A stretch of 64,000 nucleotides of DNA, taken from positions 47,237-111,236 of the forward strand of contig DASVDI010000006.1 in the NCBI GenBank assembly GCA_036381175.1, read 5' to 3'. Below the pieces are notes generated by a model, which saw nothing but the letters and a program-made list of their open reading frames with translations, was not told the DNA's origin and did no database searches. Source of the stretch: Gammaproteobacteria bacterium (GTDB taxonomy: Bacteria > Pseudomonadota > Gammaproteobacteria > Natronospirales > JAJUFS01). This document shows positions 4,558 to 45,620 of this stretch, piece by piece. Numbering within the stretch: the stretch's first letter is position 1; each line of letters begins with the position of its first letter. The translations under genes were made by a program, and so were the position numbers.

Positions 4558-5389
4558 CTAGTTTGTAGACAGTGTCATTAATTCCACCATAGAAGACGCT
4601 CGAACCATCTGGCGAAATTTCCGAACCCTGAATCCCGGACGACATCGGTTCACCACTTCCCACCGTTGCACTTGTCGTGTCGATCACCAGTTCACGAACC
4701 GAAATATTTTTGCTTGTGTCTTCGGCTCGCACTTCGATCTGATTGGCGCCAGCCGACAACGGCATGTCGAAATGCCAGTTGCCGGTTGCCGGATCGGGCG
4801 AAACGATCGTGCCGCCAACGGTGAGCGTTTCCAGCGCCTGGTCCTGGACCGTTCCTCGAACACGAATTGATGTGACATTCGTGATTCCGAGTGCGGGTGG
4901 GAAATGCACCGCGAGTTCGGGCGATTCCTCGTCTGCCTTCGTGGTTACTTCGAATACAGCCGACACCGAAGGCTCGCCCGCAAAGAACTCACCGCTCGCA
5001 ACACCCTCCGGCGTGTCCGAGGCCTGCAGGCGAATGACAACAACGTCGCCATTCTGCACGGTGCGGTCCAGGTGATTGTCCTGCTCGACGCCGTTTATCA
5101 GCAGCACGAATCCTGCCGTGAGGTCCGCGAGACTTGCAGGAACGAGTTCGCCGTCATCAAGCCCCGCGATAGTCACGCTGGCTTCGTGGAATTCGCCGGG
5201 GTTTGCATCCACCACGGCAGCAAAACTGAATGCGTCGGGCGTGCGATCCGCCACGGGCGGAGTTGTTCCGGGCGGAGTGACGCCCGGTGGATCATTGCCG
5301 CAACCGGCGGCTGCGAGTAGAGCGGTCAACAGGAATGCGTTTACAAGGTGCCTGATATTCATGGGAATCCTCCGTGATCGGGCGTTCAA
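4463..5389 (-). pseudogene. beta-propeller lipoprotein, N-terminal fragment (lipobox, Pro/Thr linker, Ig-like region)
   Basis: Signal peptide plus lipobox (LLAAAGC), a PPGVTPPGTTPP linker and a beta-rich region. The sense reading ends near VYKLD, after which the frame runs into unrelated sequence. Confidence 0.6.
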
Positions 5390-26805: not shown

Positions 26806-26993
26806 GCCTGCTGGAAGAACTTGAAATCCAGTGCCCCTACTGCGGATCACCCTTCGCCATCGAAGCCGAACCTGCGCTCGAAGACCAGCAGTTCATCGAA
26901 GATTGCCCGGTCTGTTGCGCGCCCATAGAATTCGAATTGCGCGCCGAATCCGACGGCGGCTGGCGGCTTTCTGCCCGGCGGGACGATGACTGA
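26802..26993 (+). CDS. CPXCG-motif cysteine-rich small protein (zinc ribbon)
   Basis: 63 aa with CPYCG...CPVCC. Translationally coupled to hemW (start overlaps its stop). Confidence 0.7.
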   Translation: MSLLEELEIQCPYCGSPFAIEAEPALEDQQFIEDCPVCCAPIEFELRAESDGGWRLSARRDDD

Positions 26994-27228
26994 CGACTAC
27001 GTACCGATCGACTGCGACGTGTACGAGCGCTACGAGCTCGCCATCATGCATCGTGAAACCCTTTTCATTCGTTGGCGCGATACCGGGGGAATGACGCACC
27101 TCGAACTTCTGCAACCCGTCGACTTGCGCGCACGCGACGGCGAGGAATTCCTGCACACACGCACAGCCGACGGCGCCGAACGGATTCTGCGACTGGACAG
27201 CATCGTGGAAGTGCGCGAGCGATCCTGA
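26986..27228 (+). CDS. rof: Rof-family Rho-binding antiterminator
   Basis: 80 aa. YVPIDCDVYERYELAIMH resembles the Rof/YaeO N-terminus (Y.PI.CD.YD.LE). Confidence 0.65.
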   Translation: MTDDYVPIDCDVYERYELAIMHRETLFIRWRDTGGMTHLELLQPVDLRARDGEEFLHTRTADGAERILRLDSIVEVRERS

Positions 27229-27294
27229 ATCTGCCGGAAAAAAAGGCCCAGAATCAGGCACCTGCACATCGGGACGGCGGCATTCGACGGTCAG

Positions 27295-27303
27295 TTATTC
27301 ACA
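27295..27303 (+). promoter_or_regulatory. DnaA-box-like nonamer TTATTCACA
   Basis: Matches the TTATNCACA consensus. Confidence 0.4.
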
Positions 27304-27484
27304 TACGGAACACTACGGAGAACTTTCGCGGTTTCTCGCAGCGCGGTTTGCCCGTTTTGACCGGCATTATTGCTCAACTTGTTGTTTTTATTAGGAATTT
27401 TTTAGTGGCGACTTTTTCACCGATTTGAAACAAAACCTGCCTTTTCCGGTGTTTTATTTCATTTGCACGGTTTCATGCACAGAC

Positions 27485-27507
27485 TTATCCACAGATTCTG
27501 TGGATAG
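27485..27507. promoter_or_regulatory. perfect DnaA box TTATCCACA within the palindrome TATCCACAG-ATT-CTGTGGATA
   Basis: TTATCCACA at 27485..27493. An inverted partner, cTATCCACA, lies on the other strand at 27499..27507. Located in the A/T-rich intergenic region upstream of rpmE. Confidence 0.5.
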
Positions 27508-27709
27508 TGCGGAAAGCGCCTCAGTGTCAGTGACTTAGCGTCACATGATGAAGCGGGATGGGAACAAGGCTCTGCAAGCGTGCCGCAAGATATCGCTCCG
27601 TCCAGGGCACTTTCCCGCCCTTGCCCGGCCCGGCGAATGCGGCTAAGATGCGCGGCTCGCTTCAGGCTCCGGGAACATCCGTGAGCCGAACAACCGATCG
27701 AGGAACGTC

Positions 27710-27910
27710 ATGAAGCCCGAAATTCATCCCGATTACAAAGCGGTCAAGGTCACCTGCAGCTGCGGCAACGCCTTCGAAACCCGTTCCACCATGGGCGAAG
27801 ATATGCAGGTCGAAGTCTGCTCGCAGTGCCATCCGTTCTACACGGGCAAGCAGAAGATCATCGACGCCGGTGGTCGCGTGGACAAGTTCCGCCGCAAATA
27901 CGGCCGCTGA
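27710..27910 (+). CDS. rpmE: 50S ribosomal protein L31 (Zn-binding type A)
   Basis: [20 protein letters not shown]...[13 protein letters not shown]. Confidence 0.95.
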
Positions 27911-41679: not shown

Positions 41680-42411
41680 ATGAACAAGAATCCGTCCCTT
41701 CTTTCCGACAAAACCATTCCCGTTGACGAGCGCCTGATTGTCGCGCTCGACGTGCCGGATGCCGGCGCCGCGCGCGAACTCGTGGCAACGCTCGGCGATG
41801 CCGTGAAGTTCTACAAGATCGGCATGGAGCTGTTCATGACCGACGGCTATTTCGCGCTGCTGGACGAACTCGTTCAAGCGGGGAAAAAAGTGTTCGTTGA
41901 TTTGAAATTCTTTGATGTACCCGCGACCGTCGGCTCGGCCATCCGGCAGCTTTCCACGCGCGGCGCCACCTTCGCGACCGTGCACGGCAACCAGGCGGTG
42001 ATGGAAGCCGCGGGTGAAAACAAGGGCGACCTGAAAGTCCTCGCCGTTACCGTGCTAACCAGTCTTGATCGTGGTGATCTCGATGATCTCGGTTTCGCGG
42101 TGGATGTCGAAAAGCTCGTGCTCTCCCGCGCGCGCCGCGCGCTCGAAGCCGGTTGCGATGGCGTCGTGTCTTCCGGCATGGAAGCGGCTGCATTGCGCAG
42201 CGAGCTCGGACCGCGCCTGATGGTTGTCACACCGGGAATTCGTCCCGTCGAGAATCGCCCGGCTGACGATCAGAAAAGAGTCGTCACACCCGCGCAAGCC
42301 TTTCGCAATGGCGCCGATTACATCGTCGTTGGCCGGCCGATTCGCGGCGCCGCCGATCCGCGCGCCGCCGCGGAACATATCCAGGCGGAAATCGCCGCGG
42401 TCTTCGCATGA
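41680..42411 (+). CDS. pyrF: orotidine-5'-phosphate decarboxylase
   Basis: LIVALDV...FYKIG..LF...[13 protein letters not shown] and TPGIR motifs. Confidence 0.95.
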
Positions 42412-43490
42412 GCGCGAACCTGCAGAATGATCTTCTCCTGCGCGCGCTGTTGCGCGAACCTGTAGAACGCACGCCGGTATGGATGATGCGCCAGGCCGGA
42501 CGCTATTTGCCGGAGTACCGCGAAACACGCGCGAAGGCCGGTTCGTTCGTCAAGCTCATGAAGAATCCGGAACTCGCCTGCGAAGTCACTCTGCAGCCGC
42601 TAGCGCGTTACCCGCTCGATGCCGCAATTCTTTTCTCCGATATTCTCACCATTCCCGATGCGATGGGCCTCGGGCTTTACTTCGAAACCGGCGAAGGTCC
42701 GAAATTCGAACGTCCTGTCCGTGACGCGCGCGCCATTGATGCGCTCGGCATTCCCGACCCGGAACAATCACTGCGTTACGTGATGGATGCGGTGCGTACC
42801 ATTCGCCGCGAACTCGCAGGACGTGTTCCGCTGATCGGTTTTTCCGGCAGCCCATGGACGCTCGCGACATACATGATCGAAGGCGGTTCCAGCAAGGATT
42901 TCTCGCGCGTGAAAGGCATGATTTACAGCGATCCGGATGCCGCGCATCGCCTGCTCGCGAAACTCGCCGACAGCGTCGCCGTTTATCTCGCCGCACAGAT
43001 TGCGGCCGGTGCGCAGGCTGTGCAGATTTTCGACACGTGGGGTGGCGCGTTGAGTGATGCCGCGTATCGCGAATTTTCATTGCAGTACATGCAACGCATT
43101 GTTGAACAATTGCCGAAGGAATCGGACGGCCGGCGCGTGCCCGTCATCCTGTTCACCAAGAACGGCGGGCTCTGGCTGGAAGCGATGGCGGAAACCGGCT
43201 GCGACGCGCTCGGTATCGACTGGACGTGCAATATCGGCGACGCGCGCCGTCGCGTCGGTGACAAGGTGGCATTGCAGGGAAACCTGGATCCCGGGGTGCT
43301 GTATGGATCACCGGAACGAATTCGTGCGGAAGTCGAAAACGTACTCGCGGACTTCGGAACCGGATCAGGCCACGTCTTCAATCTTGGCCACGGCATTACG
43401 CCTGGTGTCGATCCCGAACACGCCGGCGCGATGATTGCTGCCGTACATGAGCTGAGTCCGCAGTATCATGGGAAGAATGGACAGGATTAA
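42408..43490 (+). CDS. hemE: uroporphyrinogen decarboxylase
   Basis: [17 protein letters not shown] motif. 360 aa. Its last four codons and stop lie inside the left inverted repeat at 43476..43516. Confidence 0.95.
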
Positions 43491-43944
43491 CAGGATTTTT
43501 CAGAATTTACAGGATTTCTGTATGTCTTGAATTTCCTGCGGACGGCGACACTCTTGCCAAAATTGATGAGCAGTCCCGTCTCAAAACCTGTTGCACAAAG
43601 ATAGTTGACCAGCTGCAGTTCATGCTCTTTCGCGAGCGATACCGCCGCCTTGATCTCACAAATGACGGAGCGCTCGATCAGAAGATCGGCGTAGTAATCG
43701 CCGACAGGCTCGTTTCCGTAAAACACCGGGATTGGAAACTGCTGCTGAACGAGCAATCCTGTCTGACGCAGCTCGAGGCCAAGCGCATTTTCATAGACCT
43801 TCTCGAGGAACCCACCACCGAGCTGTTTATGGACAGTAAATGCAGCACCAATAATTTGTTGCGTTACGTCCTTGTATCGCATCTTCTAACCTGACCTGTT
43901 TTTAATCCTGTAAATTCTGAAAAATCCTGTTAATCCTGTCCATT
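43476..43944. mobile_element. 469-bp cassette bounded by perfect 41-bp inverted repeats and carrying one GxxExxY nuclease-fold gene (candidate non-autonomous mobile element)
   Basis: 43476..43516, AATGGACAGGATTAACAGGATTTTTCAGAATTTACAGGATT, is the exact reverse complement of 43904..43944. Each arm contains three ACAGGATT direct sub-repeats. The cassette fills the whole convergent hemE/fadD gap. Confidence 0.55.
43487..43882 (-). CDS. GxxExxY protein (PD-(D/E)XK nuclease superfamily)
   Basis: 131 aa with [13 protein letters not shown] (the GxxExxY motif) and the [14 protein letters not shown] core. A/T-rich relative to its neighbours. Its stop overlaps the hemE stop in the tetranucleotide TTAA. 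Confidence 0.8.
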
Positions 43945-43955
43945 GCTTTTCTTCA

Positions 43956-45620
43956 TTATTCGTCCCGCAACGCGCGCCGCAGAATCTTCCCGACATTCGT
44001 CTTCGGCAACTCGCTGCGGAACTCGACATGCTTCGGCACCTTGTAGCCGGTAAGTTCCTTGCGCGCGAAGTCTTTCAATTCCTTTTCCGTGAGCGCTTCG
44101 TCTTTCTTCACGACAACGATCTTCACGACTTCACCCGACTCCTCGTCGGGCGCGCCGATGGCAGCAACTTCGAGCACGCCGGGATGCATGGCGATCACGT
44201 CTTCGATTTCGTTCGGGTAGACGTTGAAACCGGACACGAGAATCATGTCCTTCTTGCGATCGACAATGAAGAAATATCCCTTCTCGTCCATGCGCGCCAT
44301 GTCGCCGGTGCGCAGCCAGCCATCCGGCGATAACTGCTTCGCGGTTTCATCGGGACGATTCCAGTATTCCTTCATCACCTGCGGACCCTTGACGCAAAGC
44401 TCGCCGACTTCACCCATCGCCACTTCATTGCCGTCTTCATCCACGATCTTTTCATCCGTCGAGGGAAGCGGCAGGCCAATGGAACCGGTGAATTCCGTCG
44501 CGCCAAGTATGTTCGCGTTTGTCACTGGCGAGGCTTCCGTCAGGCCGTAGCCTTGCGTCAGTCCCTTGCCCGTCACTTTCTGCCAGCGTTCGGCCACGGA
44601 ACGCTGCACGGCCATACCGCCGCCCAGCGCAAACTTCAGCTCGCTGAAGTCGAGGTCAGAAAACCCTTCCGTGTTCAGCAAGCCGTTGAACAAGGTGTTC
44701 ACGCCGGTGATCGCAGTGAACGGCTGCTTGCCCAGTTCCTTCACAAAGGCTTTCATGTCGCGCGGATTGGTGATGAGAATGTTCAACCCGCCGAGATTCA
44801 TGAACAGCAGGCAATTCACGGTCAATGAAAAGATGTGGTACAGCGGCAGCGCGCAGATCGCCTTTTCCTGTCCTTCCGCGAACATGTCGCCGGCCCAGTG
44901 CTTGAGCTGCAGGAAATTCGCAATCATGTTGCCGTGCGTGAGCACCGCGCCTTTCGAAACGCCCGTCGTGCCGCCCGTGTACTGCAAAAACGCACAGTCG
45001 TCCTGCGAAAGGTCCACTTCATCCAGCGTCTGCCATTTGCCTTCGCTGATCGCCTTGTGAAAGGAAATCGCGCCCGGAATATTCCAGGCCGGCACCATTT
45101 TCTTCACGCGCTTGACGACGAAATTCACCAGCGCGGATTTCGGGAACGGCAGCATGTCGCCGATGCGCGTAGTCATGACCGTTTTCACGTCGGTCTTGTC
45201 GATGACCTTCTCAAGCGTGGTCGCGAAATTCTCGAGGATGACGATCGCCTTTGCGCCCGAATCCTTGAGCTGGTGTTCCAGCTCGCGCGCCGTGTACAGC
45301 GGATTCACGTTGACTACCACGAGGCCTGCGCGCAACACACCCGAAAGCGCGACCGGATACTGCAGCAGGTTCGGCATCATGATGGCGACGCGATCGCCCT
45401 TCTTCAGGCCCGCGACTTTCTGCAGGAACGCCGCGAAATACCGGCTTTGCTGATCGATATCCGCATAGGTCAGCACCTTGCCCATGTTCGAGAATGCCGG
45501 CAGGTCGCGGTACCGCTCGAAGCTCGTGTCCAGCATGTGCCGCAGGGACGTGAAACGGGTCGCGTCGATTTCGGCAGGCGCACCGGGTGGGTAATGTTTC
45601 AACCAGATCTTTTCGACCAC
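43956..45620 (-). CDS. fadD: long-chain-fatty-acid--CoA ligase
   Basis: 554 aa. AMP-binding motif [12 protein letters not shown], plus [21 protein letters not shown] and a C-terminal [11 protein letters not shown]. Confidence 0.9.

Follow-up and report, generated by a model that had tools for sequence, protein, structure and literature searches.

A GxxExxY nuclease gene between hemE and fadD lies in the loop of an interspersed palindromic repeat found in roughly ten bacterial phyla

The 64,000-nucleotide stretch analyzed here (hereafter the window; contig DASVDI010000006.1 of the Gammaproteobacteria bacterium assembly GCA_036381175.1, positions 47,237 to 111,236) carries, between the convergent genes hemE and fadD, a 469-bp unit in which a small gene of the GxxExxY family is enclosed by perfect inverted repeats, here called arms. 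The arms belong to a family of CAGGAT-type palindromes dispersed through many bacterial genomes, and GxxExxY is the sole recurrent gene of this family, the link between the two being near-exclusive. The unit is thus one of the copies that carry a gene. From sequence comparison we consider it about an even chance (probability roughly 0.5) that GxxExxY is the family's own nuclease and that its gene moves by recombination through the arms. The features of the unit and its neighbours are as follows.

42408..43490, plus strand: hemE, uroporphyrinogen decarboxylase, 360 aa
43476..43516, no strand: left arm, AATGG followed by units, ACAGGATT at 43481, 43490 and 43509 and the degenerate TCAGAATT at 43500
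43487..43882, minus strand: gene for GxxExxY (131 aa), a predicted nuclease of minimal PD-(D/E)XK type
43883..43903, minus strand: spacer of 21 nt from the right arm to the GxxExxY start, a 5' leader with a purine-rich stretch
43904..43944, no strand: right arm, exact reverse complement of the left arm, non-coding
43956..45620, minus strand: fadD, encoding long-chain-fatty-acid--CoA ligase; runs towards hemE and in the same direction as GxxExxY

As the initial annotation had described, the two arms are complementary at 41 of 41 positions, with 387 nt between them, and each holds an octamer (ACAGGATT) three times in direct orientation. We found in addition a fourth, degenerate unit per arm (TCAGAATT), each arm consisting of four ~9-nt units (ACAGGATTN) laid out as AATGG and then ACAGGATT-A-ACAGGATT-TT-TCAGAATT-T-ACAGGATT, with unit spacings of 9, 10 and 9 nt. 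The 41-mer occurs in the window at the two arm sites only and was matched in none of 100 shuffles, and ACAGGATT occurs eight times (1.09 expected), six of them within the arms. The GxxExxY open reading frame (ORF) is the only real one inside the unit, as previously claimed. The left arm codes on both strands, for the last five hemE codons (NGQD*, plus strand) and for the last nine GxxExxY codons and stop (minus strand), and the overlap of the two stops noted earlier was confirmed, with hemE ending at 43488-43490, GxxExxY at 43487-43489 and TTAA at 43487-43490 common to both. The 11 nt from the right arm to the fadD stop (43956), the A/T-richness of the unit (GC content of 0.45 to 0.54 inside against a window mean of 0.60) and the lack of a target-site duplication, no direct repeat flanking the unit, likewise proved correct. 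No second arm pair or GxxExxY gene was found in the 64-kb window, and exact-sequence look-ups of the window GxxExxY and hemE products returned no record.

The last nine residues of the GxxExxY product (NPVNSEKSC) are encoded by the left arm, and near-identical tails are present in homologues labelled as different phyla; genomes were therefore scanned for the arm core. A search of 596 Gb, comprising one genome per species, with a core of 19 specified bases (GAAAAATCCTGTNAATCCTG) recovered at least 117 stretches in roughly ten phyla, several per genome, where about four chance matches were estimated. Most are gene-less palindromes of ~90 to 200 nt. The matches listed include Gammaproteobacteria (Thiobaca trueperi with five contigs, Thioalkalivibrio, Thiosymbion, Muproteobacteria and Sulfuricaulis), members of the Acidobacteriota, Verrucomicrobiota, Chloroflexota, Bacteroidota and Armatimonadota, and also Kiritimatiellia, Lentisphaerales, Desulfobacterales and Heliomicrobium. 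The possibility raised in the initial annotation that the arm occurs only once thus fails for relatives and for many other genomes, the 64-kb window itself holding a single copy of the element. In the scanned loci we counted 99 inverted CAGGAT array pairs, with a gap of less than 80 nt in 78 and less than 150 nt in 91, and with stems of median length 25 nt (maximum 44 nt, 25 perfect). These mostly short-looped pairs support the earlier proposal of a repeat family that has the arms as its termini and includes gene-less members resembling miniature inverted-repeat transposable elements (MITEs). Some 8-kb loci contain three elements, and many short copies have an A-run and a T-run as flanks. Contig ends often fall within arms (in L206, L207, L215 and numerous short contigs), as expected of a dispersed repeat. 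In a Saprospirales locus (L068:1200-1800) palindromes are tandemly reiterated, with 17 unit arrays in 8 kb.

The termini of the family have the form (A)AT-N-GACAGGATT...AATCCTGTC-N'-AT(T), and the inverted repeat spans T-N-GACAGG...CCTGTC-N'-A throughout. Because the outermost bases are inverted rather than duplicated, the family has no target-site duplication; a TA duplication was considered and ruled out by TG...CA and TC...GA ends, which place this position within the inverted repeat. At the variable position separating units 1 and 2, the two arms are complementary in 31 of 59 elements where 25 are expected (p ~0.04). Conserved units combined with near-chance pairing between them agree better with two inverted arrays of sequence-specific binding sites than with selection for a paired stem, in support of the earlier suggestion that the sub-repeats resemble protein-binding sites. 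Stem mismatches comprise 47 G:T and 50 A:C, in which a G:U bias is unreadable as the transcribed strand is not known, and a crude ORF-based orientation count (19 convergent, 35 tandem and 17 divergent), by a method that miscalled even hemE, gave no clear bias. Rfam returned nothing for the unit, and for eight short-palindrome loci only one tRNA and one sub-threshold chance match. Viral contigs yielded one arm match and one protein relative, phage records nothing, and of 72,556 plasmid records 8 were positive, all non-mobilizable; the GxxExxY gene is thus nearly missing from viral contigs, phages and plasmids, and this scarcity leaves spread by phages or plasmids unsupported. In the literature searched there was no relevant paper on the motif, the tail peptide or the family names and no link of GxxExxY to any repeat, and the CAGGAT motif is absent from a survey of repetitive extragenic palindromic (REP) sequences (PMC3733652). 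A palindrome family associated with GxxExxY appears in none of the papers, Rfam entries or PDB records searched.

The association with GxxExxY is most evident from the loops. All six loops of 384 to 431 nt contain an intact GxxExxY gene (window, L001, L010, L084, L118 and L119), and a 128-nt loop (L025) retains the first 29 GxxExxY codons (blastx E 2.7e-9). In a census of 130 ORFs of 70 to 220 aa adjoining arrays, for which the 25 most frequent Pfam families were listed, PDDEXK_3 was the only family encountered more than twice, the remainder being assorted housekeeping genes; no transposase family was among the 25. The homologue P0044, which is without an arm-encoded tail, has CAGGATT arrays on both sides and separates the gene of a MoxR-type ATPase from that of its DUF2201 partner, and at another locus (L120) the order is array, gene and complete short palindrome. 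Four-helix-bundle genes (PF05635) were considered as a second group sharing the arms and were unsupported among the 25 most frequent families in ~800 kb of arm-containing loci.

Two loci stand apart. In one (L080:6513-7175) a loop of ~600 nt contains a HicB-like antitoxin ORF (PF15919, E 2.6e-8), the only cargo other than GxxExxY that was seen. In the other (L042:2100-3100) a complete CAGGAT palindrome and a second right-type arm enclose a gene for a REP-associated tyrosine transposase (RAYT; NF047646, E 1e-28), and a copy of this second arm with ~35 nt of its flank is present on either side of the RAYT gene. The RAYT gene has its own GC-rich REP hairpins, and the locus is one of ~118. A role for RAYT in the family was set aside, as this locus was the only one pointing to it.

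The same design was found around distant GxxExxY homologues (35 to 46% identity) from a plasmid collection, with units that differ between lineages:

Bacteroides finegoldii: gene after radA; 30-nt arms, 90% complementary, with three CAGAGGA units
Sphingomonas: gene between fabD and fabG; 25-nt arms, 92% complementary, with CGCGAAGG units
Treponema: gene upstream of a Fic-family gene; CACGGAT units
One viral contig: CACGGAT units
Fusobacteria plasmid (L209:1230-1960): gene between ATP-binding and hydrolase genes; 52-nt direct repeats, no inverted arms

The 24.8-kb Bacteroides record also has two gene-less CAGAGGA-type palindromes, its seven arrays comparing with 0.005 expected, indicating that gene-bearing and gene-less forms with a lineage-specific unit recur beyond the CAGGATT lineage. 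In the Fusobacteria plasmid, GxxExxY is flanked by three 52-nt direct repeats, each containing AATCCGTG.

The window protein matches PF13366 (PDDEXK_3; E 3.7e-39, 134.1 bits against a cut-off of 22) and TIGR04256 (GxxExxY; E 3.5e-38, 130.5 bits against a cut-off of 35). The motif G24-F-L-E27-K-V-Y30 and residues D66, E76 and K78 are invariant in 22 sequences that include homologues at 31 to 46% identity, and the full set of residues invariant down to 31% identity is G22, G24, E27, Y30, D66, E76, K78, H87, Q90 and Y94, the last two forming Q90-x3-Y94. An AlphaFold2 model (mean predicted local distance difference test score 91.2) has a restriction-endonuclease-like alpha/beta fold with the order helix-helix-strand-strand-strand-helix-strand-strand. 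Its best PDB match is the Cas4 protein SSO0001 (E 3e-4), followed by lambda exonuclease and archaeal Hjc; a PDB search with the sequence gave no match. On this modelling GxxExxY looks like an active minimal nuclease of Cas4/RecB-like type with an intact catalytic set and no extra domain. The protein belongs to a family of 15,403 clusters (50% identity) at E<=1e-3, and a survey of PD-(D/E)XK proteins lists the function of GxxExxY as unknown (PMC3424549).

The arm-encoded tail (residues 121-131) is disordered in the model. Such tails, read in various frames (NPVNPEKSC, RQDLQD, SCKS), are present in at least 58 of the best 120 homologues, and many of the 150 best cluster representatives have tails with a three-residue period (NPVNPV, NPRNPR, SSVVSSVSS, TGFSGFTG). 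Four homologues of ~380 to 410 aa (P0257, P0267, P0292 and P0347) combine a GxxExxY domain, an NPVNPV-type tail and a fused prepilin-like protein; they are probably gene calls reading through an arm.

Relatives with aroK-aroB-pyrF-hemE><fadD synteny allowed us to compare the site itself. The examination of hemE-fadD junctions proposed in the initial annotation was informative, with three allelic states:

Empty: L204 and L205; a 71-nt spacer containing the canonical terminator AAAAACGCCGGCTTTCGCCGGCGTTTT
Gene-less palindrome: L208 and L214; outer junctions as in the window (…AATGGACAGGATT / …CCTGTCCATTGCT)
Gene-bearing: window, L001 and L216

Presence is thus polymorphic at a conserved site and patchy among relatives. 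The loops of L208 and L214 contain a GC-rich terminator hairpin, GGCCGCAT(G)TTGCGGCC, have no similarity to GxxExxY, and are not deletion derivatives of the gene-bearing allele. Because these more distant relatives share the junctions and have the hairpin in place of the gene, the arms appear to predate the gene, and on sequence grounds the gene-less palindrome is most likely the older state at hemE-fadD, the gene having entered the loop later. The earlier view of a single 469-bp unit inserted exactly between hemE and fadD does not agree with the same two gene-less alleles. In a neighbour-joining tree of hemE and fadD (eight taxa, internal branches with 38 to 56% support) 100% of bootstrap replicates group the gene-bearing alleles together, and likewise the empty alleles; the gene-less L208 and L214 are sisters in just 6%, in keeping with the gene-less palindrome as the probable older state. 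The GxxExxY core of L216 is 81% identical to that of the window with hemE and fadD at 92%, the corresponding values for L001 being 93% and 91%; replacement of the loop by a paralogue would fit the low value in L216, and rate variation could also account for it. The left arm of L216 is 19 nt (two units) short.

The window hemE product has a 100% identical counterpart labelled 'MAG TPA: Gammaproteobacteria bacterium', and its homologues at 83 to 91% identity fall into two lengths, 360 aa with an arm-encoded xxNGQD end and 354 to 355 aa ending in QYH[RQD], that is, hemE of relatives without the element stops five to six residues earlier. The two length classes are interspersed in the hemE tree. 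A broader hemE scan of metagenomes (80 loci, 69 to 77% identity) found fadD, pyrF, GxxExxY or arrays nearby in none. Two homologues, P0123 (..KSQGPN) and P0128 (..QDQRTR), have C-termini resembling decayed arm-encoded tails, which suggests, from the protein sequences, that elements may be eroding at the same site in other lineages. The spacer of L202 (5070-5420) is occupied by an element of ~340 nt that is unrelated and has inverted ends of ~30 nt (CGCCGTCATTCCCGGTACCCCGGGAATCCAG...), together with a canonical terminator and no CAGGAT element, indicating that the hemE-fadD spacer has been invaded more than once. The metagenome-assembled genome that includes L216 also includes L003, in which the stretch 5180-5360 shows a single CAGGATT arm, after it a GC hairpin and seven tandem copies of CCTTTCG, and GCGAAAGG-type units on its opposite side; the L003 arrays may be a second unit-array family. 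Elsewhere in the window, a ~480-nt AT-rich spacer (27230-27700, GC content ~0.47) extends from a Rof-like ORF (26986-27228) to rpmE (27710-27910).

Comparison with L001 reveals how strongly the arms are kept. The flanking genes are 82 to 86% identical at the nucleotide level and 58 to 68% at third codon positions, and GxxExxY is 85% identical in coding nucleotides, 64% at third codon positions and 92% in protein. The arms match at 40 of 41 (left) and 39 of 41 (right) positions, 79 of 82 together, so that 95 to 98% of arm positions are kept where synonymous sites have diverged by 32 to 42%; conservation within the unit is lowest in the 21-nt leader, at 15 of 21. The two L001 arms share one of the changes, AATGG to AATAG. 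The non-coding right arm also matches that of the gene-less L214 at 39 of 41 positions, though hemE and fadD are only ~80% identical there. Arm identity so far above third-codon identity points to selection or continual homogenization and not to recent arrival, and strong purifying constraint acts on the arms in place. The initial annotation had read the perfect arms as recent mobility or strong constraint; the constraint is borne out, and recent mobility is not, the arrangement being syntenic in L001 and L216.

The choice framed in the initial annotation, between mobilization in trans and a nuclease-driven selfish element, remains the appropriate one, and the mechanism we favour would combine the following steps. 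Two inverted arrays of three or four ~9-bp units bracket a loop that in most copies is short and gene-less. GxxExxY, as the putative dedicated nuclease of the family, would recognize the unit arrays as DNA and cut at or within palindromes. The gene would then be copied into a loop, or lost from it, through recombinational repair in which the conserved arm pair supplies the homology; a loop swap of this kind, akin to homing, would leave no target duplication. By analogy with RAYTs, GxxExxY may also maintain or spread gene-less copies in trans, as RAYTs do for REPINs. In the window GxxExxY has the orientation of fadD, and judging from the sequence it is probably expressed by read-through from fadD, from the weak promoter-like hexamers of the right arm, or by both routes. 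More tentatively, and at somewhat short of even odds, GxxExxY and its lineage-specific palindromes might constitute a distinct class of nuclease-driven selfish elements, a PD-(D/E)XK counterpart of RAYT-REPIN whose nuclease gene would reside in the loop of the very repeat that it acts on and would home into further copies of that repeat, across at least ten bacterial phyla.

Several points weigh against the nuclease-driven reading. The mechanism is inferred from anatomy and distribution, the protein amounts to a nuclease core of 120 residues without a further domain for DNA binding, and the 64-kb window has a single copy. One loop has a HicB-like ORF instead and one element has a RAYT gene beside it. 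As gene-less alleles preserve the arms equally well, the arms could serve the host in a role unrelated to GxxExxY, and two independent gene losses or replacements at hemE-fadD, instead of one gain, are possible.

Such a host function is the basis of the first alternative, that of a domesticated cis-acting module in which the arrays are kept by the host as a promoter or operator, a transcription barrier between the convergent genes or an RNase III stem of the kind known from 23S rRNA intervening sequences, and GxxExxY is an ordinary chromosomal gene, one of defence or repair for example, with nothing mobile now. We regard this as unlikely, though a range of observations agrees with it, beginning with the long conservation of the arms at their site, both in alleles that have the gene and in alleles that lack it. 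The element occupies the position where empty alleles carry a bidirectional terminator, and gene-bearing alleles have no other predicted one; in the window no intrinsic terminator is predicted at 43300-44150, and so none between fadD and GxxExxY. Each arm has an inward sigma-70-like match (TGGACA-17-CAGAAT), the right-arm copy lying on the minus strand at 43942-43937 and 43919-43914. The A-run and T-run flanks of short copies would also suit a cis module, the unit RNA is predicted to fold into a 41-bp stem (z = -7.2), and the anatomy resembles that of the 428-nt, RNase III-excised intervening sequence with an ORF in Coxiella (PMC4990558). The terminator, promoter and folding predictions are not in themselves evidence of function. 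However, a plain stem does not require an identical unit sequence over about ten phyla, and the inter-unit bases exceed chance complementarity only barely, as described above. Gene-less alleles keep a canonical terminator in the loop, and the arms are therefore not needed for termination there. A patchy distribution in close relatives, several copies in one genome and a derivative with a truncated gene are features of a repeat family with turnover.

A second alternative, which we consider distinctly improbable, is that GxxExxY is a passenger: a transposase encoded elsewhere (a RAYT or some other enzyme) would move the MITE- or REP-like palindromes, and GxxExxY would be the cargo of some copies. 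Gene-bearing copies are indeed far fewer than gene-less ones, GxxExxY is very small for a transposase, and both the RAYT gene between elements in L042 and the HicB-like ORF in a loop are in keeping with this. Random cargo capture, however, does not predict a cargo that is nearly always GxxExxY or units that co-vary with it, distant members having the same arm design built from different units. The RAYT has REP hairpins of its own at its one locus, no transposase family recurs beside the arrays within the 25 families listed, and target-site duplications are lacking. A chance inverted repeat or an assembly artefact (the latter a concern of the initial annotation), which gains some force from the origin of the window in a metagenome-assembled genome, has a negligible probability given the lack of shuffle matches, the same arrangement in the independent assemblies L001 and L216, and palindromes in more than 100 other records.

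If the nuclease does act on the palindromes, the family would join REPIN-RAYT as another long-lived intragenomic replicator of that type with a different mechanism, and could be a source of a compact sequence-specific nuclease. The role of the GxxExxY family becomes testable, as a conserved DNA motif is a concrete candidate substrate, and the motif link would explain both the genes wedged in housekeeping operons and the odd tails (NPVNPEKSC, RQDLQD). For annotation, the palindromes flag arm-encoded extensions of neighbouring genes such as hemE, fused gene calls and a cause of metagenome contig breaks.

MITEs and their parent insertion sequences, for example the Correia/NEMIS elements, offer one comparison among known systems. 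Like MITEs, the CAGGAT elements have terminal inverted repeats, short gene-less copies that outnumber gene-bearing ones and copies near or overlapping gene ends, and at least one gene-less copy with an internal deletion (L025). Unlike MITEs, they lack a target-site duplication, their arms are arrays of units, and no DDE, serine or tyrosine transposase parent with the same ends was found among the 25 most frequent neighbour families. ORF-bearing intervening sequences of 23S rRNA genes (Coxiella, Leptospira) are similar in having ~430 to 470 nt, complementary ends, a long stem and a single ORF of ~120 to 130 aa, and are regarded as selfish elements kept by vertical descent (PMC4990558). The present unit, in contrast, lies between hemE and fadD and not in an rRNA gene (no rRNA Rfam match), and its ORF encodes a PD-(D/E)XK nuclease whereas that of the intervening sequences encodes a four-helix-bundle S23p protein.

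Free-standing homing endonuclease genes share with GxxExxY a small nuclease gene wedged between housekeeping genes (hemE|fadD, fabD|fabG, after radA), patchy presence, no target duplication, and intergenic sequence that is replaced rather than interrupted. They differ in that the site proposed here is a dispersed palindrome and not a unique allele, and GxxExxY is outside the characterized homing families, cleavage being only proposed in this case. REP/REPIN-RAYT systems are likewise short interspersed palindromes in core-genome intergenic spacers, with many copies that are long-lived at orthologous sites, and are tied to one dedicated small nuclease gene flanked by repeats; persistence and the repeat-flanked nuclease gene are described for REPINs in two reports (PMC5581495, PMC8049555), the former of which also gives RAYTs as typically single-copy. 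The CAGGAT arms, however, are direct tandem ~9-nt units with no internal hairpin and no GTAG/CGTC tag, GxxExxY is inside the palindrome loop whereas RAYT genes are beside their REPINs, and GxxExxY has a PD-(D/E)XK fold as opposed to the HUH/Y1 fold of RAYTs. By analogy, REPIN-RAYT and free-standing homing endonuclease genes would be closest to the unit in their working, and ORF-bearing rRNA intervening sequences in their looks. The unit fails defining features of each of these systems and of MITEs, and if the nuclease-homing mechanism holds it would deserve treatment as a new class.

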